Below, in pieces: positions 10,060-31,837 of a stretch of 64,000 nt of DNA. Under the pieces are notes generated by a model. It was not told the DNA's origin and ran no database searches. It saw nothing but the letters and a program-made list of their open reading frames with translations. How positions within the stretch are numbered: position 1 is the stretch's first letter; the number at the start of each line of letters is the position of its first letter. The stretch comes from a virus (taxonomy: Duplodnaviria; Heunggongvirae; Uroviricota; Caudoviricetes): IMG/VR virus record IMGVR_UViG_3300048865_000005; one strand, written 5' to 3'. A program made the position numbers and the translations under genes.

Positions 10060-10270
10060 AGTCTACCTCTCTACTTCTTTGCTTATTGAAGCAAGTGCTT
10101 CAATGCTTCAATGCTTGCTTGCTTAATGAACCAATGAATTGTGTGCTTGCGTTAGCACTTCAATACTTCAGTGCTTGCTGAAGTGCTTACTTAGGTATTT
10201 ACTTGCTTAAGTACGTACTTGCTCAACTGCTTGCTTCTGCGCATAAGGAAGTACTTACTATATCGGCCTC
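10060..10270. repeat. iteron array upstream of parA (TTGAAGCA / TGCTTCAA half-sites)
   Basis: More than 10 direct and inverted copies of GCTTCAAT/TTGAAGCA-like 8-mers. Includes the near-perfect inverted repeat ATTGAAGCAAGTGCTTCAAT at 10085-10104. Confidence 0.7.
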
Positions 10271-10297
10271 TCATTGATTAGCTTTAAGGATGGAATT

Positions 10298-10927
10298 ATG
10301 GAAGTTATCGCTATGGCTTCGCGGAAGGGTGGAGTAGGCAAGACGAACACGACCGAGAATTTAGGAGTGGAACTCTCTCGCCGGGGCTATAAAGTGATGC
10401 TACTAGATACTGACGATCAAGGGAGCCTTACGCAGTGGTGGAATGATCGTAAAGAGGAAGAACCCTCATTGATGCAGGTTGAGTTCCAAGAGCTTCCAAG
10501 GGCTTTACAATTGCTCGAAAGTAACGGCTTTGATTACGTGTTAATCGACACTCCCCCAATGGCTAACGAGGTAATACGCTTCGTTACTCGCTATGCGGAC
10601 CTAGTAGTAATTCCCTGTAAAGCTGGTTCCTCTGACCTAAAGGCAATAACCCAGACTATCTCTATCGTCAAAGAAGCCAAGAAGCCTTATGTTTTCCTGC
10701 TGAACGAAGTCATGCCCAACGCTAAAATCACAAAAGACGTAATGATAGCCCTGTCTCAACATGGCAAGCTCTGTCCGATCATCCCGGCACGGACTGTATA
10801 TAAGGAAGCAGGCTTCAGCGGTCTAACACCTATAGATATGCGCGTAAGCTCCCCTGCTTCATTGGAATTCAGACGTTTAGCGGATTACATCCTTAGCGAA
10901 ATTTCAACACTACAAGCAAGTGCTTGA
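10298..10927 (+). CDS. parA: ParA/Soj-family partition ATPase (type Ib-like, no N-terminal HTH)
   Basis: Deviant Walker A box ASRKGGVGKT. About 210 aa. ATG at 10298 with AAGGA RBS (the ORF track's TTG at 10274 is less likely). Flanked by iteron arrays. Confidence 0.8.
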   Translation: MEVIAMASRKGGVGKTNTTENLGVELSRRGYKVMLLDTDDQGSLTQWWNDRKEEEPSLMQVEFQELPRALQLLESNGFDYVLIDTPPMANEVIRFVTRYADLVVIPCKAGSSDLKAITQTISIVKEAKKPYVFLLNEVMPNAKITKDVMIALSQHGKLCPIIPARTVYKEAGFSGLTPIDMRVSSPASLEFRRLADYILSEISTLQASA

Positions 10928-11040
10928 GTGCTTATTGAAGCATTGATATATTGAAGCATTGATTGAAGCAAGCAGTGAAGCATTTGCTGAAGTACGTAAC
11001 CATGTATTGAAGTACATGCTTCTTTGCTTAAGTAAAGAAG
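10925..11040. repeat. iteron array downstream of parA (direct repeats ATTGAAGCA)
   Basis: ttattgaagcattgatatattgaagcattgattgaagcaagcagtgaagcatttgctgaagta... with at least 6 half-sites. Confidence 0.7.
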
Positions 11041-11050
11041 GAATGAATGA

Positions 11051-11332
11051 ATGACCAAGAAAGCTTACCAGTTGGAAGACTTAACTAAGTCCCTAAATGC
11101 TCAGCCTGTAGTGACTACAGCGGCTCAGTTGGCAGTAGTTGAGCCAACACCAGCAACACAGTCCACACCATCAGCGGATCAAATTTTTGCAGGTGCCCAT
11201 AAGACGCTCAGTGTGCGTACCGATCCAGCACGCTATAAGAAGCTTCGCCGGGCTTGCTTGGACTATGACAAGACAGGGCAAGATATTTTTATTGAAGCCC
11301 TAGACGACTGGTTCAAAAAACATAACCTATAA
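11051..11332 (+). CDS. small centromere-binding protein candidate (ParG-like ribbon-helix-helix)
   Basis: 93 aa: Ala/Thr/Pro-rich N-terminus, then C-terminal KTLSVRTDPARYKKLRRACLD...GQDIFIEALDDWFKK, consistent with a beta-strand plus two helices (RHH). Sits immediately downstream of parA. Confidence 0.5.
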   Translation: MTKKAYQLEDLTKSLNAQPVVTTAAQLAVVEPTPATQSTPSADQIFAGAHKTLSVRTDPARYKKLRRACLDYDKTGQDIFIEALDDWFKKHNL

Positions 11333-11337
11333 GACTA

Positions 11338-11365
11338 AGCCCCTTCACAGGGGCTTCATTGTTTC
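11338..11365 (+). terminator. rho-independent terminator (AGCCCCT-TCAC-AGGGGCT then T-rich)
   Basis: 7-bp GC stem after the par operon. Possibly bidirectional, since the convergent 11369-12031 gene ends here. Confidence 0.5.
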
Positions 11366-11368
11366 TGT

Positions 11369-12031
11369 TCACCGTATAACATCAAGTATCACGATATTGT
11401 TGTAGCCGTTCGCTACTGCTGCCTTGATTGCTGCCTCTACTGCTTCGGTCTCGTTGCGTGTCTCTTCTGTATGTTCAAACTGTACGTTAAACCCGCTTCC
11501 ATCCTTCGGACGGCATGAGAGCTTTACACGGATTTTGTGCGGCTTAGCTCCACGACGAGGCTTGTTCTCAACAGGTATAAGCTGAAAGTCATCATTGCTT
11601 GAATCATTCACTGCTTGAGCGGGTACTTCAGTAGTTACTTCAGCAAATGCTTCGGTAGGCACTTCCTTTGGCAATTCATTCAGTGCTTCCTTCTGTACTT
11701 CTTGAGGCGTTGAAGTGCTTGCTTCTTTGCTTATTGAAGCACTTGCTTCAATACTTGCCTGCTTACTTGCTTTCGTCGGCTTTTTAGTCGTCGGCTTCTT
11801 TTCTGCCGCTTTCTTTTCTACTGGCTTATCTGCTGCTTTGGTTGTAGCAGGCTTCTTTGCCGGGGTTTTCTTCGGAGTAGGGGAGGTCTTTTCCTCCTTC
11901 TTCGCAGGCGTACCAAACGCTTCAGCAAAAGCGCGCTCAGCCTCTTCTTTCTGTGCTCTTCTTATCATCTCAGCCTCATGCGCGGATTGTTCTTTTTTAG
12001 AAATACGAGAGTGGTTTTGACGGTACTGCAT
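11369..12031 (-). CDS. K/P/A/T-rich basic protein (histone H1/AlgP-like low complexity) with structured C-terminal domain
   Basis: Repeats of the KKPxxxK type (TPKKTPAKKPATTKAADKPVEKKAAEKKPTTKKPTK). An iteron palindrome lies in its coding sequence at 11733-11752, encoding ASIEASAS. Confidence 0.6.
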   Translation of the reverse strand: MQYRQNHSRISKKEQSAHEAEMIRRAQKEEAERAFAEAFGTPAKKEEKTSPTPKKTPAKKPATTKAADKPVEKKAAEKKPTTKKPTKASKQASIEASASISKEASTSTPQEVQKEALNELPKEVPTEAFAEVTTEVPAQAVNDSSNDDFQLIPVENKPRRGAKPHKIRVKLSCRPKDGSGFNVQFEHTEETRNETEAVEAAIKAAVANGYNNIVILDVIR

Positions 12032-12213
12032 GTCCGCTCCTTATCACAGAGATATTTTTAACTATAGCTATTCACTAGAGATGTGCCAGTTAGAGAGGCT
12101 GGCACACACATTAAGAGTGTTCTCACTCTAGATAATCGTCATAGATTTTTAAATTGAGCATACCGTTAAGATTGGCAGAAATTACACAACTTCCATGTTC
12201 GTTTGTATAAAGA

Positions 12214-12576
12214 TCATTCTTCAAGCTCGGTGTATTCGCGCGGCGGCGGCGGTGTATCACCGTTGTAGCCGTCCACTTCATCATCATGCGGCAGAACGTA
12301 CAGCTTTTTGAATTTGATCAAGTCGGTGATCGTCGCATAGCTGCCAACCGACATACCGTGAACCACCTGACCGCATTCATTCACATAGGTGGCATGCGCC
12401 TGCCAAGCCCGAACATCGAACATCGCACGGCGGGAGCGCCAAGCGCCTTTCACCGGATAGACGCTCTCAGGCGACCAAGTGAGCGCTTGCCCGTTACGCT
12501 CAGGGAACGCCGCTTGAAGCATCGCGCACAGCTTTCTGACCTTGTAGCCTGCCGGTTTACGCTTTTCCATTTTCAT
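12214..12576 (-). CDS. hypothetical protein encoded by a GC-rich island (moron-like)
   Basis: ORF of about 120 aa with GGGAG RBS. Local GC is clearly higher (about 55-60% by eye) than the flanks (about 38-42%). No domain recognised. Confidence 0.55.
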   Translation of the reverse strand: MKMEKRKPAGYKVRKLCAMLQAAFPERNGQALTWSPESVYPVKGAWRSRRAMFDVRAWQAHATYVNECGQVVHGMSVGSYATITDLIKFKKLYVLPHDDEVDGYNGDTPPPPREYTELEE

Positions 12577-12591
12577 CTCCCGTTGACGGCT

Positions 12592-12951
12592 CTACAGGCC
12601 GTCTATCTCATTGACTTTAGAAAGAACATCTACAGCCTGCTCCTCAGCCTTAACAAGTAAGGCGACAGCCTTGGCTATATCTACGTTCGTATTTGCAGCG
12701 GAACGTTTAGCTTCTTGGGCCTGAACGAACGACTGCAATGCAGATACTAAAACTTCACGCTCTTGCTTCCATTCTTCCAGTACATCACGTCTCATGTCTT
12801 CTTGACGTTGTATTTCTTTCTGCAACTCTATGTTGTCTTTTCGAAGCTCTTCTATCGTTTGGCCGCGTTGAGTTTTGTGGTAGTTAGCTTGATCTTTCAG
12901 AGCCTTCTCATTACTCAGGTCGTGCTCAAGCTGAGCAATACGCTCTTTCAA
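12592..12951 (-). CDS. coiled-coil protein
   Basis: 119-aa highly charged E/K/Q-rich heptad-like sequence. The in-frame region upstream of the TTG start encodes IEASIEASASIS from the iteron palindrome, so the true start is uncertain. Confidence 0.5.
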   Translation of the reverse strand: MKERIAQLEHDLSNEKALKDQANYHKTQRGQTIEELRKDNIELQKEIQRQEDMRRDVLEEWKQEREVLVSALQSFVQAQEAKRSAANTNVDIAKAVALLVKAEEQAVDVLSKVNEIDGL

Positions 12952-13039
12952 ATCACTTATTGAAGTACTTCCTTCATTGCTTATTGAAGCGCTTGCTTCA
13001 ATGCTTGCTTCAATAACGGGTTTTCAGATTTTGCCATTT

Positions 13040-13345
13040 TTAAAAATTCTCTATCTTTGCGAGCCGCCAAAGCTCTGATGTGAACCATTCTACAAGGGAA
13101 TTCTGTTCAATAATAGTGTCAATATTATAAATATCTGTAATTTTCTCTATCGTATTACAAGGGCTTATAATTTCTATCAATGTACATCGCCATTCCATCT
13201 CCTCTGTACCTGCATAGTCCCAATCACTCGCCCATGTGGTAGGGGAGGGAGGTATGCGAATTATTGAACAAATTTCTAAGGAAAATGTTGCAGGCACGTC
13301 AATATATCGATCCGTTGAGATCGTTGCTTTTATGTCATAAAACAC
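13040..13345 (-). CDS. hypothetical protein
   Basis: 101-aa ORF. Confidence 0.45.
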   Translation of the reverse strand: MFYDIKATISTDRYIDVPATFSLEICSIIRIPPSPTTWASDWDYAGTEEMEWRCTLIEIISPCNTIEKITDIYNIDTIIEQNSLVEWFTSELWRLAKIENF

Positions 13346-13367
13346 TGCCGACTTTTAACCTTTCACC

Positions 13368-13550
13368 TTACGCTTCCATCCATTCCACTGCCTCATCTAC
13401 ACCAGCGAATAGCTTAGAATTTTTACTGTCCTTTGAAACTCGTTTTTCACCTTTCTGACCAACTTCTTTTACAATAAAAGCTTTTGGAGTTTCCCGTAAT
13501 ATCTGAACTGCAATAAGCCAGCCGGATTTAGTTGCTAATATCCTTCTCAA
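13368..13550 (-). CDS. hypothetical protein
   Basis: 60-aa ORF. Confidence 0.4.
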   Translation of the reverse strand: MRRILATKSGWLIAVQILRETPKAFIVKEVGQKGEKRVSKDSKNSKLFAGVDEAVEWMEA

Positions 13551-13656
13551 CCATTAATACTTTTCCTTATACTTACCTGAACGTTTTGCTTCTTTCTTTC
13601 TATCTACAAATGTAGCAGGCTTATTGAAGCTATTAAAGAACTTAGCAACTGTGTTT

Positions 13657-14031
13657 TTAACCTTTGTATTCATGCCCGACAATACCTCCGTGACCTACAA
13701 TTACCGCTTCAATGATGCCTTTAGGGACATACGGGTATACTGTTTGTGTAGGCTTATCAGACTCTTCTGCATAAGGTAGAAGCTCTTCGATACACTCAGA
13801 AGGAAAGCCAATCTCGAACGATTCATACTCCGCATATGGTAGCGTCTCCCTTGGCATACAATAGTGATATTGGGAAGCCTGAATAGATAACGAAATACCA
13901 TCTCCTAATACTATTCGCTCTGTATGGCGTAGCCTGTAAGCTGAAGAAATGTCTGGTAATGTAGCCGGGAATGGACCATTCGACTCAACACCTTCTTCTA
14001 ACCACTCAGCCAAACTTTTTTCTCTGTTCAT
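13657..14031 (-). CDS. hypothetical protein (124 aa)
   Basis: ORF with GGAG RBS. Promoter-like motif at about 14046-14090 upstream. Confidence 0.5.
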   Translation of the reverse strand: MNREKSLAEWLEEGVESNGPFPATLPDISSAYRLRHTERIVLGDGISLSIQASQYHYCMPRETLPYAEYESFEIGFPSECIEELLPYAEESDKPTQTVYPYVPKGIIEAVIVGHGGIVGHEYKG

Positions 14032-14096
14032 TTCTATCTCTCCTTAGCGATTTTTACCAATGTTATCAGTGTTTATAATTTTATGCAAGTGGTATT

Positions 14097-14309
14097 TTAT
14101 TCTTCTTCATCTTTAGCTAATAACTCAATTTCTTCAGCTTCCTCTAACTCTCGCTCTAATTGTTCCCACCGCTCTTGTTGAGCCTTCTTGAACTCTTCTT
14201 TCTCTGCTTCTGACATAGCATCCCATTCTTCTTGTTGTTGGGCTAACCGCTCTTCGCGTGCTTTCATAGCACGTTCGTATTCTCTTTTCTTAAATTCTTC
14301 GAGATTCAT
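14097..14309 (-). CDS. highly acidic coiled-coil protein
   Basis: 70 aa dominated by E/K/Q (EEWDAMSEAEKEEFKKAQQERWEQLERELEEAEE). Confidence 0.45.
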   Translation of the reverse strand: MNLEEFKKREYERAMKAREERLAQQQEEWDAMSEAEKEEFKKAQQERWEQLERELEEAEEIELLAKDEEE

Positions 14310-14983
14310 ATATAACTATTTATCCTATCTACACTTAATTCCTGAATCATCAGATGCTCAAATAATCTAAAATAATCTCTTTCTATAGTAATCATTTGTA
14401 GATTATCTGAAACATCCCCTCGTCCACCAAATACATTAAAGCCTCCTCTTGCTTGAGGAATGTCGTAGATAATATGGAAGTCGTCTATCTTAGACGCCCA
14501 ATACACGCTCTTATTTCCTACGAATACTAAATATTTTTTATTATCAAAGAAATAAACATCACACTCTTGCATTGCTCCAACTACTAGACGAATTGCCTCG
14601 TAAGGCCACTGATAACAGAACGTATCATATACTCTAGGTTTTCTCGGTGCCCTAGGTTTTTTCAACTTTTGAACTATCTCTTTATTTTCAATAATTTTTA
14701 TATTATCGATCATTACTGAGATAGTATGCAGAACGTCTTCATGAAACCACTCTGAATACCCATCTTCTTTTTCTAAAATCTCATATTTCCTAGGAAGAAA
14801 TGCTTTATGTAGTTTCTTCTCTAAAGCTAAAGCGGAAGATTCGTCTTCGCACTCTTTATAAAAGCTCTCTTGGAAGTTGAAGCAATTTCCTAACTGATTC
14901 CAGCGATTTTCAAGATTTACAGCTTTCCCAATTTTAACTCTAGGTTCAGTTAAATGTTTCATGAAATAAACAAATGCAGTCAT
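14306..14983 (-). CDS. T5orf172 / GIY-YIG-like domain protein
   Basis: N-terminus FVYFMKHLTEPRVKIGKAVNLENRWNQL matches the T5orf172 (GIY-YIG superfamily) signature. 225 aa. Confidence 0.55.
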   Translation of the reverse strand: MTAFVYFMKHLTEPRVKIGKAVNLENRWNQLGNCFNFQESFYKECEDESSALALEKKLHKAFLPRKYEILEKEDGYSEWFHEDVLHTISVMIDNIKIIENKEIVQKLKKPRAPRKPRVYDTFCYQWPYEAIRLVVGAMQECDVYFFDNKKYLVFVGNKSVYWASKIDDFHIIYDIPQARGGFNVFGGRGDVSDNLQMITIERDYFRLFEHLMIQELSVDRINSYI

Positions 14984-16255
14984 TTACGTACAAACCTTAT
15001 CTTCTTGGACAACACCGTCTAATCTGTATTTGATACCGACTGGAACAACACCAGCAGTACCGAACCGTTCCCTGAATTTACCGCCCATCGTATTACACAG
15101 AAGATTGAGATGTTCCAGCGGCACAATAAACGAGTCGTGCACCGGCAAACATGGAACGCCCCTCTCAACCATAGTAGACAAAACATCGCTAGCTAGATGA
15201 CTATCGGCATTTTGTAAAACTCTTCCAAACGAACCTTCTCGGCAAAACAAGTGCCTAAAGGTAGGGTATGCCCGGTACACCAGTTCCATGACTTGTGTTG
15301 CTGTACCAAGAGAAAACTTAAATTTTTCTTCATTTTTTAAATAATTAATTTCTTTTTGGATTGCTGCACGTGCTTTCTTCTCGTTATCGCAGTTGAACAT
15401 CATGTTCACAGCGAGCTTCACGATACGTCGATCTATTGGATTTTTCTCGTCTTCTAAAATTCCTGAGTAAACATCTAGAGGAATTTCATTGGAGTCTAAG
15501 CCTTCCATTGCAGCGGCAATACGAAAATGTAGGTTTGAGTAGTCGATTTCGACGACTGGCTTACCGTCTATCGTAATGTCTAGCCTTGCGTTATCATCCC
15601 TGTTCTTTATTGCCAACACATCGGCATGATAGAAGCGACCACCATGCTCGAAAGATTCATTGAAAATTCTGCAATAAATATTTGTTAGTAATTTTCCTGT
15701 ACCGTCTCGAATTTCTGAAGATTCATTCAATTTATTCAGATTTCTTACAGATTCCGACATTCTCTCAATATGTTCAGAATTTCTATAGGAAATACTTTTT
15801 TTATCAGAATCTCGTAATTCGATGACTTCTACTTGTTCTAGATAATCTTGTTCAGCTAATTCAACAATTTCTTGAAACCCCCATTCATTCAGGAATTTAT
15901 CTGTAGGTTCGATCCAAGATGATGACCTATTGTTAAGAAATACTGAAGATTTACCAATATGGTTGGTTATAAGACCCTGATTTTCAAGGAAATTTACAGC
16001 TTTTATAACTCTTTCAGGATTTATCTTCTTTCTACCGACACCGTAAGCAGAATTCTTACTACGACAGTAGGCAAGAGTACTCCCTTTCCGTAGGCAAGCT
16101 ATGAGGTTATATACAACAACAGACAACACTTCATTGTCTTTGTACGGATACCAACGAACCCGGTTACTTACTGACTTTCTGACACGCAATCTGTATGTCA
16201 GTAATCGACTATACCGCATAGCATCAGAACCACTCTCCATCCTCACATCCTGCAT
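14984..16255 (-). CDS. large early protein of unknown function (423 aa), possible DNA-binding/replication initiation role
   Basis: First gene of the leftward early block. GGAGG RBS. No confident motif (PVHDSF, NLHFRIAAA noted). Confidence 0.6.
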   Translation of the reverse strand: MQDVRMESGSDAMRYSRLLTYRLRVRKSVSNRVRWYPYKDNEVLSVVVYNLIACLRKGSTLAYCRSKNSAYGVGRKKINPERVIKAVNFLENQGLITNHIGKSSVFLNNRSSSWIEPTDKFLNEWGFQEIVELAEQDYLEQVEVIELRDSDKKSISYRNSEHIERMSESVRNLNKLNESSEIRDGTGKLLTNIYCRIFNESFEHGGRFYHADVLAIKNRDDNARLDITIDGKPVVEIDYSNLHFRIAAAMEGLDSNEIPLDVYSGILEDEKNPIDRRIVKLAVNMMFNCDNEKKARAAIQKEINYLKNEEKFKFSLGTATQVMELVYRAYPTFRHLFCREGSFGRVLQNADSHLASDVLSTMVERGVPCLPVHDSFIVPLEHLNLLCNTMGGKFRERFGTAGVVPVGIKYRLDGVVQEDKVCT

Positions 16256-16396
16256 ACCGGGCCTCCATATCAGGGTGTTTTTTCTCTAGAACCCACGTGG
16301 CACTAAGGCTAGAGGGCTATTTTCATCGACATTTTCTGTCAATTCGAAGCGAATCCTACAGGAAAAAATAAATTCCTCAAGAATTTCTAAAAATTT

Positions 16397-16456
16397 AAGT
16401 TTTTTGAAAATTTCTAAAAAATCTTGTTGACGCTCTCGTTAGGCGATGGCAGTATG
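16397..16456 (+). promoter_or_regulatory. divergent control region: degenerate copy of the TTTTTTGAAA motif plus a weak sigma70-like promoter (TTGACG-N17-CAGTAT)
   Basis: AAGTTTTTTGAAAATTTC at 16397-16414. TTGACG at 16427-16432. Start of the rightward gene block. Confidence 0.3.
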
Positions 16457-16491
16457 CCGTCCCATCGAGCCTTGAGAAAAATGTCAACTTT

Positions 16492-16698
16492 TTGGAGAAC
16501 ATTGCTGTGAGAAGGGCTGTAGAGCTTGTAGGTGCAGGGTTAACGCTAGAGCTTTCCAAAGTGACGGCAGTTAGGACAAAACAAAAAATGATCCATTTTG
16601 ATGAATTACCAGATGGGACGTGGAGACTCATTTACAACGGAGAACAAATTCCAGATTTTTCGAAAATTACAGAATTTAAGATAGTTCGAGAAAATTAA
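16492..16698 (+). CDS. hypothetical protein
   Basis: 68-aa ORF. The real start may be GTG at 16507. Confidence 0.45.
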   Translation: MENIAVRRAVELVGAGLTLELSKVTAVRTKQKMIHFDELPDGTWRLIYNGEQIPDFSKITEFKIVREN

Positions 16699-16701
16699 AA
16701 A

Positions 16702-16908
16702 ATGGAAGTAATCCGTCAGCACGTAGGAATAATGAGTAAAGACGAATTTCAAGATTGGGTTGCTGGGCAAGAAGCTATCCGCGAGATAAGTAAATTTCTA
16801 TTCGGTGTCCGTGATGGTATCAGTGGTCGGGTGTTCGGTTACTACGCTCTGCTTGATTTGAGTCCCTTAGTTAAAGGTCAGAAGATAGTAGAGGTCGGTG
16901 GCCTGTGA
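16702..16908 (+). CDS. hypothetical protein
   Basis: 68-aa ORF. Confidence 0.5.
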   Translation: MEVIRQHVGIMSKDEFQDWVAGQEAIREISKFLFGVRDGISGRVFGYYALLDLSPLVKGQKIVEVGGL

Positions 16909-17485: not shown

Positions 17486-17653
17486 TAGTTGGAGCATTTA
17501 ACAAAAGAAGAGTTACGCGGAATTCTTAATAAATTCCCGATTGAAGAATTAATGGCGATACAAGAGATAATCGAAACGATCCTAGAAGAACGTAATGCAG
17601 GTTTGTACCTGATAATGAAAGACGTTCTAAGCGGTATCAATTCGTCTGAAGAA

Positions 17654-17929: not shown

Positions 17930-17952
17930 TCTCAACTTTTTTGAAACATTTA
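17927..17952 (+). promoter_or_regulatory. conserved middle-block motif copy 2 (CTCAAC-TTTTTTGAAACATTT)
   Basis: Followed by AGGAG and GTG at 17962. Confidence 0.5.
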
Positions 17953-17961
17953 GGAGCTATT

Positions 17962-18276
17962 GTGCAAATTAGTTATGGTCTGCTGTCGGCTAGATTTTTT
18001 GTAAATAATGTTGGAAATCTTGTCCCTATAACTTTAAGCGAAAAGATTATTTATACCTACATGAAGGAACGTTGGATTACGTTCAACAGGAACGGTGACG
18101 AGTTCCTTGATACTGTAAACGAAATTGCAGAAGCTCTTAATGTGGACAGAAAGACCGTCATGTCAACAATCAAGAAGCTTACAGAGAACGGGGTGGTAGA
18201 AGGCTATAAGGGAAGATTAGGAAGTAGCAATAAGTGGATTTGGAATAATTTTAACGAGTTTACCCTGAGAGGCTAA
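17962..18276 (+). CDS. hypothetical protein, possible winged-helix DNA-binding
   Basis: GTG start with AGGAG RBS (the ORF track's TTG at 17941 lies inside the motif). KTVMSTIKKLTENGVVEGYK resembles a wHTH recognition helix. Confidence 0.45.
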   Translation: MQISYGLLSARFFVNNVGNLVPITLSEKIIYTYMKERWITFNRNGDEFLDTVNEIAEALNVDRKTVMSTIKKLTENGVVEGYKGRLGSSNKWIWNNFNEFTLRG

Positions 18277-24247: not shown

Positions 24248-24256
24248 GAGAAATAA

Positions 24257-24466: not shown

Positions 24467-24511
24467 ACTCTATTTGTAAAAATCTCTATAATTAAAAGGT
24501 AAATAATTTAA

Positions 24512-25504
24512 ATGTCATTTGAAGTATACGGTGCTGCCCAAAATAACTCTTCCAGTCAAGTTCAAGTTGATTTCGATGAACTGAATAAGTATGTAGTTGA
24601 TACAGCACAACTCCAACAGCGTGAAACTCTTGTTGGTCACGTTGCAATGCTAGTCGATCTTGGTACACAAGAACTACCAGACGCAGAGAATGTTTTTAAT
24701 GGTACTGAAGAGGACGAACGCAAGACTATTGCAGAGTATCCAGATACCTATTTTAAAGACGGTATTGACCCTGAAACCAAGAAGCCAGTACGCCTAAAGT
24801 GCTACCCGCAGAAGCCGGTACAGTGTGCAGCGTTAGGTATTGATTTTACCGATATCATGATTGATAAAGGCATCTTCTTTGGTGAATCCAAGCCGCTCCC
24901 TCTACGTCTCTGGTTGGGTGGTCAGTTCTACATTCAAGATCAAGGCATGGTGATTGGCCGTCCTACTCCTCTGAAGGTGAACAAGAAGCTGGGCGATTGG
25001 AGTTTGGATCAGAAGAACCTGTTCTACAAAATGGCTGTAGCAGATAAAGCAATCCAGCCGGGACAAGTATACAAACCACAACGTATTAGCGAGCTGTTGG
25101 GTAAAGCTTTCCAATTTGAAGCTCAAGTGTTTTTTAAAGAAAGTAAAGGTAAGCAGTACTATACCGAATATGTAAAGTTCGTTTCAGGTTTGGGCCGTGG
25201 TCAGGTAGCTCCTGAAATGCTCACAACTCCTATGATGATTCAGTTCAACAAAGAGAACGAACCTACCGCAATTAAAGAATTGCGTGCTCACGTAGTAAAC
25301 ACTATTAAAAGGGCAAGTAACTACGAAGGCAGCGTTATTCAGAAGCAGATTGAAGAGGTTCGCGGTACAAAGCCTGCCCAAGAGAAGCCGGAAGCAGATA
25401 CGCAACAACAGGAACAGGAAGCTCCTAAGCCGACTAAGACTACTAAGTCGAAGCCAGCCACGAAGCCGGTGCCTGATAACCTTGACGACGATATTCCGTT
25501 CTGA
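24512..25504 (+). CDS. single-stranded DNA-binding protein candidate (T7 gp2.5-like) with E. coli SSB-type C-terminal tip DDDIPF
   Basis: Acidic/Pro-rich tail ending ...DNLDDDIPF is identical to the bacterial SSB C-terminal interaction motif. Body is loosely similar to gp2.5 (VRLKCYPQKP). Adjacent to replication genes. Confidence 0.5.
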   Translation: MSFEVYGAAQNNSSSQVQVDFDELNKYVVDTAQLQQRETLVGHVAMLVDLGTQELPDAENVFNGTEEDERKTIAEYPDTYFKDGIDPETKKPVRLKCYPQKPVQCAALGIDFTDIMIDKGIFFGESKPLPLRLWLGGQFYIQDQGMVIGRPTPLKVNKKLGDWSLDQKNLFYKMAVADKAIQPGQVYKPQRISELLGKAFQFEAQVFFKESKGKQYYTEYVKFVSGLGRGQVAPEMLTTPMMIQFNKENEPTAIKELRAHVVNTIKRASNYEGSVIQKQIEEVRGTKPAQEKPEADTQQQEQEAPKPTKTTKSKPATKPVPDNLDDDIPF

Positions 25505-25525
25505 TGGTTTTTGTTCGTCCGCAAT

Positions 25526-25552
25526 AAATTCCTAACTTTTTTGAAACATTTA
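25526..25552 (+). promoter_or_regulatory. conserved middle-block motif copy 3 (CCTAAC-TTTTTTGAAACATTT) followed by a UUCG-tetraloop hairpin (25553-25570)
   Basis: Motif, then GCCCTTC-TTCG-GAAGGGC stem-loop, then AAGGAG RBS, then TTG at 25588. Confidence 0.5.
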
Positions 25553-25587
25553 GCCCTTCTTCGGAAGGGCACTTTAAGGAGAGTTAC

Positions 25588-26157
25588 TTGAGTAAGACTA
25601 AACAAAAAGAAGCAGTTGAGATTTTCGCAATTATTGACCGTAGTGGCTCTATGCGTCCACTTACAGCAGAAGCTATCGGCGGTTTCAATGCCTTCCTCGC
25701 AGAACAGAAAGCAGTTAAAGGTAAGGCCAATCTTACCCTTGTATTGTTCGACCATGAGTATCTAGTCGTTGAAGACCAGACTGATATTCAAGACGTTAAA
25801 GAGTTGACTCTTGAAACCTACGTACCTCGTGGTATGACTGCGCTGAATGACGCTCTCGGTATGTCTCTAGTTAAGCTAGAAGAGATCAATCCGAAGAAAG
25901 CAATCATCTGTGTACTTACAGACGGTGCAGAAAATTCAAGCAAGGAATTTACCGGACTTCAAGTTAAAGAGTTGATGACGAAAGCAGAAGATAAGGGCTA
26001 TCAGACAGTCTTCCTAGCCGCAAACATCGATGCCAATCTTGTAAGTAAATCTCTCGGTGTAACTCGCGGAGTTGTACAAGGTTTTGGAGCTGATGCGGAC
26101 GGTATGCACACCGCTTACGCCACAATGGGCCTTTGTGCTTCTGCTTATCGGGCTTAA
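25588..26157 (+). CDS. von Willebrand factor A (vWA) domain protein
   Basis: MIDAS motif DRSGSM, then TALNDAL and LTDGAEN. 189 aa. Confidence 0.65.
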   Translation: MSKTKQKEAVEIFAIIDRSGSMRPLTAEAIGGFNAFLAEQKAVKGKANLTLVLFDHEYLVVEDQTDIQDVKELTLETYVPRGMTALNDALGMSLVKLEEINPKKAIICVLTDGAENSSKEFTGLQVKELMTKAEDKGYQTVFLAANIDANLVSKSLGVTRGVVQGFGADADGMHTAYATMGLCASAYRA

Positions 26158-26159
26158 TT

Positions 26160-26336
26160 ATGAAGTACGAAGAAGCTAGAAAAGTACTTCAAAAAGCATG
26201 GGGAGCCTTCTTTGACAGTATAAAAGAGGCAGGTATCGATCACTATGCGGTAGATGATGCAATCGACTGTAAAGACGGTTTCAATCTAGTGGACGATGCT
26301 TTTATGGAAGTTGCACTTTCAAGGAGTGAAGATTAA
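26160..26336 (+). CDS. hypothetical protein
   Basis: ATG at 26160 (the ORF track's 26133 is an alternative). Confidence 0.4.
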   Translation: MKYEEARKVLQKAWGAFFDSIKEAGIDHYAVDDAIDCKDGFNLVDDAFMEVALSRSED

Positions 26337-26644
26337 TGGGAGTAGAGTGTACAGCTTATTTGTGTATCGGGACGTATGCTGAGGATGCAGAGCAATATCT
26401 AATCGAACACGGTCTTCTTCAAGTTGGAGAGCTTGAAGATAAGTATGGCGGTGATATTGAATTAGTAGATCACTTAGAAGTTAAACCTGCTAGTCGTTAC
26501 TCAGATAGCGGTTATTACGTTGGTTTCTTCGTATATAAAGGCGAGGTAAAAGATTTTGCAACAGAAGTAGTCGCCTCAGCAAATATCTTCAAAGCACTTA
26601 CAGGTGAAGAAGCAACAGTAAACTTATTCGAGCATTGGCACTGA
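26336..26644 (+). CDS. hypothetical protein
   Basis: 102-aa ORF. Confidence 0.5.
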   Translation: MGVECTAYLCIGTYAEDAEQYLIEHGLLQVGELEDKYGGDIELVDHLEVKPASRYSDSGYYVGFFVYKGEVKDFATEVVASANIFKALTGEEATVNLFEHWH

Positions 26645-26811
26645 TGAAATATGTATATGTAGTAACTTCAAGAGATTTGGGGTGGGATAATGTTGTAGGT
26701 GTATTTGATGCTTCGACAATTACTCTTGAAGAGTTACAAGCAGTATTCCGTGAACCTCCTTACTATATCGACCATCGCCGCGTAGAAGTTGATTTCGAGA
26801 ATTACGAATGA
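26644..26811 (+). CDS. small hypothetical protein (55 aa)
   Basis: ATG overlapping the previous stop (TGATG). ATGA-coupled to the next gene. Confidence 0.35.
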   Translation: MKYVYVVTSRDLGWDNVVGVFDASTITLEELQAVFREPPYYIDHRRVEVDFENYE

Positions 26812-27044
26812 AGCCTACGGATTACGCTTTCTTCTTAGAAATGGCAAAGAAACATGAGAACGATGGAACAATTCAACACTTCGTTCTCAATACTAATCCA
26901 AACAGTAACTTTGAATCAGTATTAAAAGAAATGGTTGATAGATTGTTAGCCGATAAACGCGGGACTATTCAAGAGAATCAGAAAATGTCTTCAATACTGA
27001 AAAAGCACGGACTATATTATTTAATTTTAGAGGAGGATATTTGA
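26808..27044 (+). CDS. hypothetical protein
   Basis: 78-aa ORF. Confidence 0.5.
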   Translation: MKPTDYAFFLEMAKKHENDGTIQHFVLNTNPNSNFESVLKEMVDRLLADKRGTIQENQKMSSILKKHGLYYLILEEDI

Positions 27045-28033
27045 GTCTAAAAGCAATTGTAGATACCGATTTTATAAAATATGCAGTAGCTTGTGCAGGC
27101 GAAAAAAGATCGATCCAAGTAATCCATAAGCAAAGCGGTAGAGAAAAAGAGTTCAAAACCCGTACAGAGTTTTACGGAAGAGATAAAAAGAAGTCAGGTG
27201 GTTGGTTAGGCGAGCTTAATAAGAATCGAACCTCCCCGTTTATGTTAGACGAATTCGAAATCGTCGATGTACAAACTCCCGAACCTCTAAACAACGTTCT
27301 CCACTCTGCAAAGTTAATGTTTCAGCGAACATTAGAGAAAGTCGGTACAACTAAATATAAAGGCTATATTGGAAAGGGTGATAGCTTCCGGGTAAACCTT
27401 TCCACCATCATTAAATACAAAGGCAATCGTGAAGAGACACTTCGTGCAGTATACATGCAGGAAGTTGAAGACTATCTAATTAAGAAATTTAATTTAGAAA
27501 CAGTAAGAGATTACGAAGCTGACGATGTATGTGTAATGGATTGCTATAAGAATCCTGATAATGTACTTGTCGGAGTAGATAAAGATTACGCTGGGCAACC
27601 GGTAAGGTGGTTTAATCCTAATAATCCTGATGTTGGTATTCAAGATTGCGATTGCTTCGGCAAGTTGTTCTTAAGTGCTAAAGGTCATGTTAAGGGAATT
27701 GGAAGAGCTTTCCTCTACCATCAGATAGGTAGCGGAGACTCTAGCGATAATTATAAAGCCAACTCTGCCAGTGAGCGTGCATGGGGAGATAAGAGTTCAT
27801 TCGATATTCTTAGCCAAGCCACAAACGATAAGGAAGCTCTAGAGGGGTTGGTTCGAATCTACAAGGAAGAACTCTACCCTGAACCCGTAATGATTAAGGG
27901 TTGGCGTGGTGACGAGTTCGAAGTCGATTGGCTGTACGTTCTCGAAGAAAACTTTCAAATGGCACGCATGAAGCGATTTGAAGGCGATGATGTGTACATT
28001 AAAGAAGTTCTGCAAAGGTTCGGTCTCTTATGA
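27041..28033 (+). CDS. 5'-3' exonuclease / flap endonuclease (FEN, RNase H-like)
   Basis: N-terminal AIVDTDFIKYAVA (compare LLVDGSSLAFRA). YEADDV (GYEADDVIA motif). VLVGVDKDYAG (TxDKD motif). Confidence 0.65.
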   Translation: MSLKAIVDTDFIKYAVACAGEKRSIQVIHKQSGREKEFKTRTEFYGRDKKKSGGWLGELNKNRTSPFMLDEFEIVDVQTPEPLNNVLHSAKLMFQRTLEKVGTTKYKGYIGKGDSFRVNLSTIIKYKGNREETLRAVYMQEVEDYLIKKFNLETVRDYEADDVCVMDCYKNPDNVLVGVDKDYAGQPVRWFNPNNPDVGIQDCDCFGKLFLSAKGHVKGIGRAFLYHQIGSGDSSDNYKANSASERAWGDKSSFDILSQATNDKEALEGLVRIYKEELYPEPVMIKGWRGDEFEVDWLYVLEENFQMARMKRFEGDDVYIKEVLQRFGLL

Positions 28034-28611
28034 TTCCGAGCCAAGCAGATATTGAGAAACGGCAAGCCAATCTCGCTAAGTTTCTGAAGCAAATCGATCC
28101 AGTCACAGGCAAAGCCCCTGAAAAGACAATGGTACAGGTTGTACGCAGTGCCATACGTCAAGCATGGATGAAGAGTCCGACAAAGTTAGCGTATCTGTAT
28201 CAACACACAGAGGCAGATATGGATAACAACACACGTACTAAATGGAAAGTACGGTGTGAGATTTGCGGTGAACATTTCAAAGTAAATGAAGTTGAGATTG
28301 ACCACATCAGAGGCAATCACTCATTCACGCGTGTTGAAGATTTTGAAGATTATTTTAACAACATTTTGATGGTTGGTTTTGATGATCTTCAGGTTCTATG
28401 TAAAGACGGTTGCCATGCAATCAAAACATTATCTGAACGTCTTGGTATTACTTTCGAAGAGGCAAAAGTGGAGAAGGAAGTAATCGAAATATGTAAGACG
28501 AAGAAAGATAAAGACTTCATTAAAAAGAATGGCCTAATTCCTGAATCGAATGCAGATAAGAGGAGGGCACAAGTAAGGAGAATACTTAGTGACAGTACGG
28601 AGAAAAAGTAA
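28030..28611 (+). CDS. HNH endonuclease (homing-endonuclease-like)
   Basis: CEICGEHF...EIDHIRGNH...DGCHAIK matches the HNH CxxC/DH/N/CxxCH arrangement. Confidence 0.6.
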   Translation: MIPSQADIEKRQANLAKFLKQIDPVTGKAPEKTMVQVVRSAIRQAWMKSPTKLAYLYQHTEADMDNNTRTKWKVRCEICGEHFKVNEVEIDHIRGNHSFTRVEDFEDYFNNILMVGFDDLQVLCKDGCHAIKTLSERLGITFEEAKVEKEVIEICKTKKDKDFIKKNGLIPESNADKRRAQVRRILSDSTEKK

Positions 28612-29221
28612 ATTAATTTTTGGCGTTGGAATTAATGATGCTGATTATGTAGTTGCAACGAATGTACAAATTGATGGAAAGCATAAGAGATTACGGATTT
28701 GTCCTTTCTACGCTAGATGGAAGAAAATGCTTGAGCGGTGCTACTCAGGAAGTTGGCACACACTCAAACCAACGTACAAAGATTGTTACGTTTGTGAAGA
28801 GTGGAAAACTTTCTCAAACTTTAAATCTTGGATGGAGAAGCAAGATTGGGAAGGTAAGCAGTTAGATAAAGACATACTCTTCCGTAACAATAAAGAATAT
28901 TCGCCGCTGACGTGTGTTTTTGTTGACTCTCATGTAAATAGCTTCCTGATTGAAAGAGACAGTAAGCGTGGTGAATACATGATTGGCGTCCACTGGCATA
29001 AGCGAGACAAAAGGTTTACTTCCGCTTGTGGTGATGGTCTAGGTAAGACAACTTATCTAGGTAATTTCAATACAGAACTTGAAGCTCATCTTGCTTGGCT
29101 TTCATATAAATTAGAACGAGCTAAAGAATTAGCAGCAAAACAAACTGATTCACGAGTCGCAAAAGCACTTATTGATCGTTACCAAAATTATCATGTATTT
29201 CAAGAAGCAGAGGCAGCATGA
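28589..29221 (+). CDS. HNH-family / AP2-domain endonuclease-like protein
   Basis: N-terminal RICPFYARWKKMLERCYS...DCYVCEEWKTFSNFKSWM (HNH_3-like). C-terminal YIGVHWHKRDKRFTSACGDGLGKTTYLGNFNTELEAHLAW (AP2-like). Confidence 0.55.
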   Translation: MTVRRKSKLIFGVGINDADYVVATNVQIDGKHKRLRICPFYARWKKMLERCYSGSWHTLKPTYKDCYVCEEWKTFSNFKSWMEKQDWEGKQLDKDILFRNNKEYSPLTCVFVDSHVNSFLIERDSKRGEYMIGVHWHKRDKRFTSACGDGLGKTTYLGNFNTELEAHLAWLSYKLERAKELAAKQTDSRVAKALIDRYQNYHVFQEAEAA

Positions 29222-29577
29222 GTAAAGATAAGAAGTATTCTCTATATATTATCCGCCACAAGACTACTGGTGAGGTTTTCCGGGCACCTTCAGGAAAAAC
29301 AAGTTGGCGAGCAGCTAACCATGCTAAAGCTGCATTTGCACGTATTCACCGTTGGCAGTGTGAGTCGTATGGACTCCCCCTAATTGCAGAACGTATTTCG
29401 CCACGAGCACCTAAGTTCGATGAACAAGATGTTTACGAATTAGTAGAGCTTGTCGGTACTGCCGAAGATCGACTGAAGCAGGCTGAAGACCTTTTGGAAC
29501 ATGTGTATGCACTGAAGCCAGACCTGCCCACTGAACTAGCGAGACTTATTAAGGAGTTTTTAAAAATTGAAGAATAA
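29218..29577 (+). CDS. hypothetical protein
   Basis: 119-aa ORF. Confidence 0.5.
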   Translation: MSKDKKYSLYIIRHKTTGEVFRAPSGKTSWRAANHAKAAFARIHRWQCESYGLPLIAERISPRAPKFDEQDVYELVELVGTAEDRLKQAEDLLEHVYALKPDLPTELARLIKEFLKIEE

Positions 29578-29691
29578 AGTAATGGAGTGTCTATTTGAAC
29601 TCTACAAAGAAGGCTTTTTTCTCTTGTGTGAGAAGTGTGTAGAGCTACAAGTGTTCTGGTATGTATTCGTAAATCAATTAGGGTTGAATTA

Positions 29692-29886
29692 ATGTCCGCT
29701 CAAATAATTAGCCTTTTTAGTACTGTCGAATCTCAGTGGAATCCTGAAGAGCATATCGAGATGTTGCAACGCCTACAGAGCGATTTTCACAAACTATCAG
29801 TAATTCAGAAACAACAAGTTTTCGACAATGTTTCAAATTCCTTGATTCAAATATTTTCTAAAGTTAAACTTACAAAGGAGAGTTAA
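29692..29886 (+). CDS. hypothetical protein
   Basis: ATG at 29692 (the ORF track's 29635 is an alternative). Confidence 0.4.
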   Translation: MSAQIISLFSTVESQWNPEEHIEMLQRLQSDFHKLSVIQKQQVFDNVSNSLIQIFSKVKLTKES

Positions 29887-30818
29887 TGCAAATTAAGCAA
29901 TGGCATAAGTACGCAGATGAGCTAAAAGCCAAAGGATACCCAAGCCGTAAAATCTCTAAGATGATCGGTAAAAGCAAATCAGCAATTAACGATTATTTCG
30001 CAAAAAAGAAAGCAACTAATTTTGGTAGCCTGCCGATTAACGCAGATGTTAACGGTCCTAAAATTCTCTTTATTGATATCGAATTAAAACCAATTCTTGC
30101 CCAAGTGTGGCAACTTTGGGATAACAATGTAGGACTTCCGCAGATACAAGAAGATTGGAGTATTCTTTCTTTCTGTGCTAAGTGGGGACACTCAGAAGAG
30201 ATTATTTATCATGACCTCTCTGAAGCTGAAGATTTCGAAGATGACTATGAGCTTCTAGAAATTTTGTGGGACTTACTTAACGAAGCAGATTTTGTAGTAG
30301 GTCAGAACTCTAAACGTTTCGATGTTAAGAAGATCAATGCACGGTTGATCCTGAACGGGTTCCCTAAGCCGTCTTCTTTCCGCCAGATTGATACATTTGA
30401 GATAGCAAAACGCCAGTTCGGATTTACAAGCAACAAACTCCAATACATGACAGAGAAGCTATGCAAGATGTACAAGAAACGTACACATCAGCAATTCCCC
30501 GGTCATTTGTTGTGGTCGGAATGTCTGAAGGGTAATCCTGAAGCTTGGAAAGAGATGCGTGACTATAACATCGATGACGTTCGGTCTCTCGAAGAGTTGT
30601 ACGGAATTTTGGCGTCATGGGATAATACCCTACCGAATTTTGACGTTTATATAGACGCTGTACCTGATATGTCTGAGTGGATCGAAGATGGATTCGTGTA
30701 TACAAACCTTGGAAAGTTCCAGCGTTACAGGAACTTGCGAACAGGTGTACAGCGGAAGGGGAGAACAAACCTCCTTTCGAAAGAAAAAAGAACATCTTTG
30801 CTTGCAAACATTACTTAA
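29886..30818 (+). CDS. DEDD-family 3'-5' exonuclease-like protein with N-terminal HTH
   Basis: ILFIDIE (Exo I DxE). GQNSKRFDV (Exo II). YNIDDV (Exo III Y..D). N-terminal KISKMIGKSKSAINDY. Confidence 0.45.
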   Translation: MQIKQWHKYADELKAKGYPSRKISKMIGKSKSAINDYFAKKKATNFGSLPINADVNGPKILFIDIELKPILAQVWQLWDNNVGLPQIQEDWSILSFCAKWGHSEEIIYHDLSEAEDFEDDYELLEILWDLLNEADFVVGQNSKRFDVKKINARLILNGFPKPSSFRQIDTFEIAKRQFGFTSNKLQYMTEKLCKMYKKRTHQQFPGHLLWSECLKGNPEAWKEMRDYNIDDVRSLEELYGILASWDNTLPNFDVYIDAVPDMSEWIEDGFVYTNLGKFQRYRNLRTGVQRKGRTNLLSKEKRTSLLANIT

Positions 30819-30910
30819 CCCTGTATACTTCACCACAAGCACTGCTGATTCAAATTCATTTCCGTGGCTGGTCTTGATGATGACGCAGTGCTAGTTTTTG
30901 CCTAAAGAAA

Positions 30911-30938
30911 AATAAGGACTTTTTTGAAACAATTTAAT
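30911..30938 (+). promoter_or_regulatory. conserved middle-block motif copy 4 (AAGGAC-TTTTTTGAAACAATTT)
   Basis: Variant upstream half. An ORF start (TTG 30924) lies inside the motif. Confidence 0.45.
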
Positions 30939-31184
30939 CCGAGAGATTATGTCATTATTATAGACGATGTTGGGAGTTTTCAGGGTGTACCTGTTGAGCC
31001 TCTACCTGTGACTGGTAGGGCTAGAATCTTCTCCGCTGAATACGGCATAGAAAATATGTTGGACTTGGAAGAAGATTTACATGAAGCCTTTGGCAAATAT
31101 CATAATATTTTACCTAGAGATAAGAATGGCTTTGTTCGCGGAAGCATCAAGGTCGAAGTTACTTGGACGGATAGTACTGCCTAA
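30924..31184 (+). CDS. hypothetical protein (start uncertain)
   Basis: 86-aa ORF whose only in-frame start is TTG inside the conserved motif. Confidence 0.35.
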   Translation: MKQFNPRDYVIIIDDVGSFQGVPVEPLPVTGRARIFSAEYGIENMLDLEEDLHEAFGKYHNILPRDKNGFVRGSIKVEVTWTDSTA

Positions 31185-31257
31185 GTAGCAACCAAACATT
31201 AAATAGCATAGCTATGTATCCTCAGATTAAGAGGGAGGAATAACTGTGCCTGATAGA

Positions 31258-31285
31258 AAAAACTCAACAATTTTGAAACATTTTA
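31258..31285 (+). promoter_or_regulatory. conserved middle-block motif copy 5 (CTCAAC-AATTTTGAAACATTTT)
   Basis: Followed by AAGGAG and GTG at 31301. Confidence 0.5.
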
Positions 31286-31300
31286 AAGGAGATATACAAA

Positions 31301-31837
31301 GTGGCACTTGAATATAAAGTTGGCGATACAGTGAAGATTAAAAATACGGTAGGTGTTATCGATCTTCGACTAGGTGAAGTTTGTGTGGTAGATGCGGTAG
31401 ACACCTCTGATTCAACGTACTTCCCCTACCGTCTAGTTTCATTTACTCGAAACGCTGCTGAGTGGGTTCCAATTTCGAGTATCGGCCCTGTAGAGGATTC
31501 CGCTGTCCCTGCAAAGTTTACGTTTGCTATACCACATACAGACGTAGAGAGTGAAGCAAGCATTGAAGCAAGTGCTTCAGAGGTTGACTATGTAAATGCT
31601 CCGCCTCATTACATGTTGATTGAAGACTTCGAAGTAAAAGACCTTATGAAGCTTCTGTTGGATCGAATTGAAACGAGTAGTGTTGTTCACTTCTCCCACT
31701 TCCAAAGCTCTTGCTACAAGGAAGCAGTTCAATATCTGGTTCGCTGCATGAATAAGAACGGTATCGAAGATATCCGTAAGGCACAGTATTACATCAACGA
31801 AGTGTTGAAGCTTGAGGATTCAAAAGTTGGGGCCTAA
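31301..31837 (+). CDS. hypothetical protein (178 aa) containing iteron-encoded SIEASAS
   Basis: GTG start with AAGGAG RBS. Internal DNA palindrome-like ATTGAAGCAAGTGCTTCAG at 31562-31580. Confidence 0.55.
   Translation: MALEYKVGDTVKIKNTVGVIDLRLGEVCVVDAVDTSDSTYFPYRLVSFTRNAAEWVPISSIGPVEDSAVPAKFTFAIPHTDVESEASIEASASEVDYVNAPPHYMLIEDFEVKDLMKLLLDRIETSSVVHFSHFQSSCYKEAVQYLVRCMNKNGIEDIRKAQYYINEVLKLEDSKVGA

Follow-up and report, generated by a model that had tools for sequence, protein, structure and literature searches.

Why does a tailed phage carry one palindromic DNA sequence beside a partition gene and again, 21 kb away, inside the reading frame of an unrelated protein? The question arises from the window analysed here, a 64,000-nt stretch of the viral record IMGVR_UViG_3300048865_000005 (Caudoviricetes) that contains a parA gene at 10298-10927 on the plus strand. 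A first-pass annotation of the window had described a 20-bp palindrome reused at five or more loci, three of them in coding sequences, and had proposed either that the copies are dispersed parS-like sites for a centromere-binding protein or that the peptide they encode, (A)SIEASAS(I), has a function of its own. We find that the palindrome is one arrangement of a shorter repeat, a tetramer box, and that such boxes form six arrays at and away from parA. With a probability that we put at roughly 0.7, these arrays are the binding sites of a 93-aa ribbon-helix-helix (RHH) protein encoded beside parA, in a plasmid-type segregation system of this ~88-kb phage.

Tetramer boxes in a 4-nt register

The window lies on the 88,310-bp metagenomic contig SRR35925424_36083 (Logan; the JGI contigs are 88.4 kb), and genome-level scans were run on a 79-kb assembly stitched from contig positions 9281-88310. 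When up to two mismatches are allowed, the palindrome ATTGAAGCANNTGCTTCAAT is found four times in the window, at 10085-10104 (no mismatch), 11733-11752 (none), 12983-13002 (one) and 31562-31581 (two), against an expectation of 0.02, and none of 100 shuffles gave four copies. On the two strands of this assembly together, the half-site ATTGAAGCA is present 14 times, compared with 1.9 copies expected from Markov-2 simulations (maximum 9), and 13 of the 14 fall within the six arrays. Both frequencies exceed chance, a comparison by which the first-pass annotation could have been refuted, and its claim that a palindrome is reused at several loci holds as far as the repetition goes. The unit that is repeated is, however, the tetramer box RCTT/AAGY, which keeps a strict 4-nt register and commonly appears as ATTGAAGC units. 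Written in tetramers, the palindrome is itself a box arrangement, ATTG AAGC AAGT GCTT CAAT, and it marks the densest part of the arrays, as in the stretch ATTG AAGC AAGT GCTT CAAT GCTT CAAT GCTT GCTT GCTT. The consensus over 79 oriented boxes is AAGY followed by a purine (A in 85%). An 8-nt sublattice was considered as the true register and rejected, since both sublattices are populated, which leaves 4 nt as the basic register. A hairpin or terminator role for the palindromes was also rejected, as they lack a T-tract, have a 2-nt centre and are present in arrays in both orientations.

About 83 in-phase boxes are distributed over the six arrays, five of which lie in the window and the sixth outside it on the same contig. 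Array A1 (10049-10256) comprises 25 boxes in a single 4-nt phase, occupies the divergent intergenic region upstream of parA and includes the perfect palindrome at 10085-10104. Array A2 (10914-11033), with 14 boxes in a single phase and three ATTGAAGCA units, runs across the parA stop codon and the spacer between parA and the downstream gene. Array A3 (11597-11772) is situated inside the coding sequence of a gene we call gene 3 and has 19 in-phase boxes, including the perfect palindrome at 11733-11752. Array A4 (12955-13014) abuts the start of a gene for a coiled-coil protein and carries nine boxes in a single phase, with the palindrome at 12983-13002 and a further half-site at 13006-13014. Array A5 (31554-31581), 21 kb from parA, consists of five contiguous in-phase boxes (AAGC AAGC attg AAGC AAGT GCTT; six within 64 nt) in the linker before the DUF3310 domain of another protein. 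Array A6 lies ~15.7 kb upstream of parA at about -5622 to -5545 in window coordinates (contig ~12,950-13,030; locus L126 ~16,670-16,800), at the 3' end of a 79-aa gene whose product ends in GLKQASIEARKGGLN followed by the stop; it reaches seven in-phase boxes per 64 nt and includes a pair of ATTGAAGCA units spaced by 16 nt.

Counted per scan region, the boxes sharing one phase are 24/24 in A1, 14/14 in A2, 19/21 in A3, 9/9 in A4 and 5/5 in A5; for A3 (boxes of 11585-11790) the chance of such agreement is ~2e-9. Regions with at least six in-phase boxes per 64 nt are confined to A1-A5 in the window, and the 79-kb assembly adds A6 alone (seven). In 100 Markov simulations the maximum number of in-phase boxes per 64 nt was four in 71 runs, five in 27 and six in two. 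An unbiased scan of all 136 tetramer classes placed every top in-phase cluster in the par region. Apart from the arrays, an isolated ATTGAAGCA unit at 7840-7848 stands just 3' of a gene for an HTH_37/HTH_3 (Cro/CI-like) protein (7883-8200), with a TTGACA hexamer 25 nt downstream; this single copy is probably due to chance.

A ParF/ParG-like pair, and related plasmid loci with the same boxes

The product of parA is a 209-aa Walker-type protein without an N-terminal DNA-binding domain, of type Ib and ParF-like, that matches Pfam AAA_31/CbiA/VirC1, phrog_164 and, in the PDB, ParF of TP228 (4dzz/5u1g; E=5e-10 for 4dzz). The next gene, at 11051-11332 on the plus strand, starts 123 nt after parA and encodes the 93-aa protein, with an RHH domain at residues ~50-93. 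A single-sequence search gave a weak ParG match for this protein. Its family was collected by a full-library HMMER search that returned about 30 small homologues, which were then aligned, and the family profile has ParG (1p94) as its best match in the PDB (E=1.6e-4), followed by other RHH proteins; among 33 family members, three match Pfam ParG and nine match Antitox_RHH. A single-sequence AF2 model was uninformative (pLDDT 57), and the alignment-based model was used. It has a pLDDT of 95-98 at residues 50-93, which form an extended strand (KTLSVRTD) and helices at 59-72 and 76-90, and low confidence at residues 1-49 (58-75), consistent with a flexible tail. Foldseek returned 1p94 as the top match (probability 0.99, rmsd 1.8 A over 47 residues, E=0.17) and then other RHH proteins. 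On profile and model evidence, ParA and the 93-aa protein are a predicted type Ib pair of the ParF/ParG kind, and the features expected of that type (a small Walker ParA, a downstream RHH protein with a tail and adjacent short-repeat arrays) are all found here. Most N-termini of the RHH family share M-x-K-x-A-x-L ... KG-x-A-x-P before a variable low-complexity tail; by analogy with the N-terminal tail of ParG, this motif may be a ParA-contacting peptide.

Type Ib systems with RHH proteins are known from plasmids, where the repeat arrays form one noncoding block or lie in promoter regions. The boxes of the phage recur at the par loci of six independent plasmids whose ParA and ParG-like proteins are related to its own (L123, L134, L136, L138, L139 and NZ_CP044072.1; 42-57% identity for those compared). 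At all six, in-phase AAGC/ACTT/GCTT boxes are placed upstream of parA and over the parA stop codon and the intergenic region, in units such as ACTTacgc (seven times), acccAAGC (six or seven times) and atttAAGC; in L123 the units are ACTTacgc and acccAAGC, seven times each, and atttAAGC. The nearest ParAs, at 56-57% identity, belong to small Rep_3 plasmids (L123-L125) and to the 132-kb Pseudomonas oryzihabitans plasmid NZ_CP044072.1 (56.5%). The RHH protein of L123 is 42% identical to that of the phage, and the RepA_C plasmid L134 encodes a ParA of 42% and an RHH protein of 48% identity. L134 uses the unit 'attg AAGC', and TGATATATTGAAGCA is common to L134 and phage array A2 with proteins that are less than 50% identical. 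The presence of boxes at these plasmid loci indicates that the box co-varies with the ParG-like subfamily and is conserved at the DNA level; conservation in relatives was the other check that the first-pass annotation had set. AAGY every 4 nt, with the unit ATTGAAGC, can serve as a rule for finding cis sites in this ParA/ParG subfamily. The alternating T-S-R/K residues of the RHH strand (KTLSVR in the phage, RTLSVK in L123 and KTLSYR in L134) would face the DNA, to judge from other RHH proteins.

Several observations concern the parA end and the gene beyond it. The last codons of the phage parA (QASA and the stop, 10914-10927) already belong to A2, and the end of parA is box-encoded also in L123 (QQARA and the stop, 1498-1511) and in L140 at ~4618-4632. 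The DNA at this end, CAAGCA[A/C]GTGCTT[G/A]AGTGCTT, is far better conserved than the remainder of parA at its 56-57% amino-acid identity. Downstream of parA in NZ_CP044072.1 we located a ParG-like gene (98 aa, beginning MARTPRDLGSMLN; L140 ~4696-4992, that is ~46,119-46,415) that is absent from the PLSDB gene table, a table itself incomplete, so that the gene is possibly annotated in the original record.

In the small plasmids every array is noncoding and adjoins parA, and in the complete 132-kb sequence of NZ_CP044072.1 we found arrays at the par locus (44.5-46.1 kb) and nowhere else. The phage thus resembles its plasmid relatives in the homologous ParA and RHH proteins and in AAGC/ACTT/GCTT boxes in a 4-nt register, and it differs from them in that their arrays are noncoding and restricted to the par locus. 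The dispersal of arrays over at least 37 kb and their overprinting on open reading frames (ORFs) are specific to the phage and not a family trait. The nearest phage-borne ParA (50% identity), accompanied by a ParG-like gene, is that of Acinetobacter phage vB_IME_Ab2712 (L001, OK149216.1; Schitoviridae, 74.6 kb, a record marked UNVERIFIED). A 12.6-kb segment of this record is 98.7% identical to the 75-kb circular plasmid NZ_CP110465.1 of an A. baumannii clinical isolate, so that phages with this module can exist as plasmids, and Ab2712 itself looks like a phage-plasmid; this speaks for a plasmid lifestyle of the phage described here. Neither RCTT arrays nor any other in-phase tetramer cluster were found in Ab2712, which therefore gives no second example of dispersal.

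The plasmid loci also bear on whether the boxes serve another protein or process. The 20-bp palindrome resembles a classical operator of a dimeric helix-turn-helix (HTH) protein, and the phage encodes candidate regulators of this kind (the HTH_37/HTH_3 protein of 7883-8200 and an HTH_36 protein of 17941-18276); A1 sits in a divergent intergenic region that probably holds promoters, and short-repeat arrays are also typical of replication origins. The same boxes, however, accompany the ParA/ParG-like pair in six plasmid loci that have differing replication proteins (Rep_3, RepA_C) and no phage regulators, and the arrays of the 132-kb plasmid keep to its par locus. Short units of 4-8 bp, mixed in orientation and extending over 60-200 bp, agree with RHH arrays and not with 17-22-bp iterons or single HTH operators. 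We consider operators of a phage HTH regulator, or origin iterons, highly improbable as an account of the arrays.

The reading that we favour remains that of dispersed sites for the RHH protein. The proposal of parS-like sites in the first-pass annotation thus gains support from the arrays at parA, the ParG-like neighbour, the boxes at plasmid par loci, and the register and synonymous codon choice within genes; it held up in each computational test applied, and it is from these findings that we infer binding, centromere activity and any regulatory role. One RHH dimer would bind each box or each 8-bp unit ATTGAAGC, and dimers would coat each array cooperatively, as shown for ParG on parH and OF of TP228. 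A1 and A2 would act as operator and centromere, A3 and A4 would extend the partition complex over ~3 kb, and A5 (21 kb downstream) and A6 (~15.7 kb upstream) would add distal docking sites. No RHH centromere-binding protein is known to spread along DNA in the manner of ParB-type proteins; a large replicon could therefore enlarge its partition complex only through additional arrays. Nucleoid-bound ParA-ATP would, on this reading, pull or position the phage genome, with plasmid-like inheritance as the result.

Comparison with characterised systems places the phage closest to TP228 ParF-ParG. In TP228 the OF operator and parH contain 20 degenerate 5'-ACTC-3' boxes with regular 4-bp spacers, direct and inverted, upstream of parFG; one ParG dimer binds per box, sites with four to six boxes retain about half of the centromere activity, and box orientation is of little functional importance (PMC3130281). 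In both, a gene for a small, HTH-less ParA precedes one for a small RHH protein whose N-terminal tail is flexible (predicted so in the phage), and arrays of tetramer boxes in mixed direct and inverted orientation lie beside the operon; ParG is also the best match of the phage protein in profile and fold. The phage differs in its box (AAGY/RCTT, not ACTC), in spacers that are often ATTG/CAAT rather than simply AT-rich, with many boxes contiguous, and in having ~83 in-phase boxes in six arrays instead of 20 in one block. Its arrays also lie between parA and the ParG-like gene, inside ORFs and 16-21 kb away, its replicon is a phage genome of ~88 kb, and the similarity of its RHH protein to ParG is remote, as the profile score given above indicates.

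Multi-site RHH centromeres have a precedent in plasmid pSM19035. Its parS sites are six separate arrays of 7-10 heptads, which are bound by the RHH protein omega, overlap promoters and serve as operators as well as centromeres; full activation of ParA takes at least four contiguous repeats (PMC9499535). The phage shares with the delta/omega system an RHH-type protein and short-repeat arrays at separate loci of one replicon (six in 79 kb, with binding presumed on the phage side). It departs from it in the 4-nt register and the AAGY box, where pSM19035 has 7-bp WATCACW heptads in promoter regions only; pSM19035 is moreover a Firmicute plasmid, and arrays inside coding sequences are undescribed there. 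Phage N15 offers another genome with scattered centromere sites (SopAB, IR1-IR4) and is maintained as a linear plasmid-prophage; its sites are reportedly dispersed through the genome. N15 is, by contrast, type Ia, with a large SopA, an HTH-type SopB that spreads and single palindromes of the 16-bp kind, whereas the phage is of type Ib with multi-box RHH arrays, and the parts of its genome examined showed neither a protelomerase nor lambdoid features. The likeness to chromosomal ParABS (an HTH ParB-CTPase with a 16-bp palindrome and spreading or sliding) is limited to sites that overlap coding sequence, as the neighbour of the phage parA is the 93-aa RHH protein and no ParB-type protein is adjacent. 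The box specificity is new and shared with the plasmid subfamily; the unusual features are that arrays are scattered over a large phage genome and that some are embedded in its ORFs.

Arrays written into coding sequences

Two of the palindrome copies are read as peptide: the product of gene 3 (11369-12031, minus strand) has KQASIEASASIS at this position and that of the DUF3310 gene (31301-31837, plus strand) has SEASIEASASEV, so the SIEASAS-type translations of the first-pass annotation are correct for both genes. The third coding site that it had listed, 12983-13014, is in frame with the coiled-coil ORF, but an in-frame stop precedes it and the first canonical start of the ORF, TTG 12951, comes only after it. 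No ATG, GTG or TTG intervenes between this copy and the TTG, which public gene calls also use, and A4 with its 12983 copy is probably noncoding. That the coding sites share a phase, as had been claimed, is accurate for the in-frame translations and carries little evidential weight: the third frame of the palindrome holds a TGA in both orientations, leaving two frames open (as read from the sequence), so that two coding sites would share a frame with a probability of ~0.5.

Within the coding arrays the boxes exceed, in number and register, what the amino-acid sequences account for. The gene 3 segment 11585-11790 has 19 in-phase boxes. Synonymous resampling with the phage's own codon usage, repeated 5000 times, averaged 8.5 and never gave more than 15, and shuffling of codon order averaged 3.3 with at most 8. 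Both halves of A3 are significant when resampled separately (left p=0.007, other half p<1e-4), as are A5 (p=0.0024) and A6 (p=0.018). In A3, A5 and A6 the boxes are mostly AAGY on the sense strand irrespective of gene strand, an orientation that codes for the hydrophilic residues K, Q, E, A and S; since box orientation matters little in TP228, it would be free to adapt to coding. Box orientation, codon choice and even amino-acid order may thus have been adapted to carry the arrays, three of which are overprinted on ORFs, as we propose, because the genome is densely coding.

The same data address the suggestion that the peptide itself was selected, as a linker or as a modification or interaction site, with DNA similarity merely following. 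In its favour, two unrelated proteins share the peptide, with the palindrome read in one and the same frame on the sense strand. (A)SIEASAS is, however, simply the translation of GCA AGY ATT GAA GCA AGT GCT TCA; the best-conserved copies are noncoding (A1, and A4 by gene calls), the period is 4 nt and not 3, and synonymous codons are biased towards boxes. In A6 the 9-mer ATTGAAGCA is read once as LKQ and once as IEA, that is, in two frames, which together with the noncoding A4 identifies DNA as the conserved entity, and the motif also stands at plasmid par loci that lack such proteins. A peptide-level function, the other proposal of the first-pass annotation, is accordingly largely refuted and of very low probability; the register, the codon bias and the two-frame reading make the SIEASAS peptide a by-product of the DNA signal.

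A different account would treat A3-A6 as relics: copies of the parA-proximal repeats, spread by slippage, gene conversion or illegitimate recombination into tolerant linkers, functionless and not yet decayed. A1, A3, A4 and A5 have nearly the same core sequence (51-nt repeats at 86% and 71% for A1, A3 and A4; 25 of 26 nt between A5 and A3 on the sense strand, as we read the printed sequences), gene 3 has no homologue among the proteins searched, the arrays occupy low-complexity linkers, and a recently copied array would likewise pass synonymous resampling. The left half of A3 (11597-11700) is, however, only 60-65% similar to A1, yet has eight of eight boxes in phase at a 12-nt spacing (a spacing that gives the protein a 4-residue E[AV] periodicity), and A6 is arranged differently from the other arrays, besides its reading in two frames. 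The AAGY sense bias whatever the gene strand points to adaptation to coding rather than random insertion, and six arrays in a densely coding genome would all have to be neutral at once. We therefore regard relic duplication as an unlikely explanation, though one with more to commend it than either alternative already discussed.

For the RHH-binding reading itself, some points weigh on the other side. Given how alike the A1, A3 and A4 cores are, some of the signal, the apparent bias in synonymous codons included, could also stem from recent duplication or gene conversion. With a distance of only 4 nt between many boxes, RHH dimers could not occupy every box simultaneously, and boxes fall on both 8-nt sublattices. 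A5, with five or six boxes, is near the minimum for partial activity in TP228 and pSM19035, and its genome-wide significance is marginal on box count, given that two of the 100 simulations reach six. About 9.3 kb of the 88.3-kb contig lies outside the scanned assembly. All public copies of the phage are 100% identical across 9000-14500, and the collections searched contain no closer relative. The phage collection yielded no DNA match and IMG/VR no relative of ParA; apart from the phage itself, no ParA homologue exceeded 57% identity, and motif scans of IMG/VR and GTDB genomes gave only single, chance-level matches; a word-seeded search with the RHH protein recovered only the query, and the RHH sub-alignment matched nothing in IMG/VR. 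One candidate ParA relative, P0085, was rejected as an unrelated chromosomal ParA.

If the arrays are indeed sites for the RHH protein, an RHH-type centromere has been split into many arrays across at least 37 kb of a large phage genome, and arrays of up to 19 boxes have been overprinted on ORFs with a 4-nt register that shapes both codon choice and peptide, which would make this a clean natural case of dual coding. The system would also offer a testable handle on how centromere-binding proteins that do not spread build a large partition complex on a big replicon, and on how phages with virulent-type gene content are inherited as plasmids. Intragenic arrays with a regulatory or roadblock role are possible. 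More tentatively still, these elements may be joined into one picture, which we consider rather unlikely: an 88-kb myovirus with lytic-phage genes (primase-helicase, PolA, RNR and thymidylate synthase, with no integrase among the parts examined) would persist as a low-copy plasmid by means of a ParF/ParG-type centromere split into at least six arrays, and the RHH protein on intragenic and promoter-proximal arrays would keep the phage in the carrier state by silencing or blocking transcription genome-wide. Under selection, the arrays would then have written the IEASAS linkers and the 4-residue E[A/V] periodicity, and possibly given rise to the ORFan gene 3 over an ancestral downstream centromere.

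Neighbouring genes and genome context

Gene 3 encodes a 220-aa protein whose central linker is encoded by A3 and for which a word-seeded search among 5.8 billion proteins matched only the protein itself. Its K/P/A-rich N-terminal half is histone-H1-like, and AGGAG provides the gene with a good Shine-Dalgarno sequence. Possibly gene 3 originated, or was lengthened, over a centromere located downstream of parG. A GC-rich, terminator-like hairpin (11337-11356) separates it from the convergent ParG-like gene. The coiled-coil gene (12592-12951, minus strand; 119 aa, TTG start) heads the leftward group that ends with gene 3. For the 178-aa DUF3310 protein, tblastn gave no match in phages.

Regarding transcription signals, one promoter-like site, TTGAGT-17-TATATT, lies inside A2; A1 occupies its divergent intergenic region, A4 abuts a start codon, and A3, A5 and A6 are intragenic. 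A scan with promoter and terminator consensus sequences was at chance level.

The genome encodes, in addition to the replication and nucleotide-metabolism functions already named, exonucleases, HNH and GIY-YIG endonucleases, lysozyme, terminase, portal, capsid and contractile-tail proteins, and the phage is a large myovirus of ~88 kb; no integrase appeared among the genes examined. Rfam and transfer RNA scans were empty. Adjoining A1, the segment 9723-9900 is GC-rich and strongly structured and lies directly upstream of the leftward gene 9420-9722; its RNA fold has a z-score of -3.8 on the minus and -3.9 on the plus strand, none of 200 shuffles folds as well and it has no Rfam match. It could correspond to a small RNA or to a structured leader at the 5' end of that gene's transcript. 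Gene-free gaps are found at 13015-13555 (~540 nt, directly beyond A4) and at 16256-16700 (~450 nt); at the second, the early genes, which run leftward, diverge from the rightward replication module. Either gap may contain promoters or an origin. A GIY-YIG/T5orf172 endonuclease gene (14306-14983, minus strand) and an HNH endonuclease gene (28030-28611, plus strand) are located in or close to these early and replication modules and likely encode homing endonucleases.

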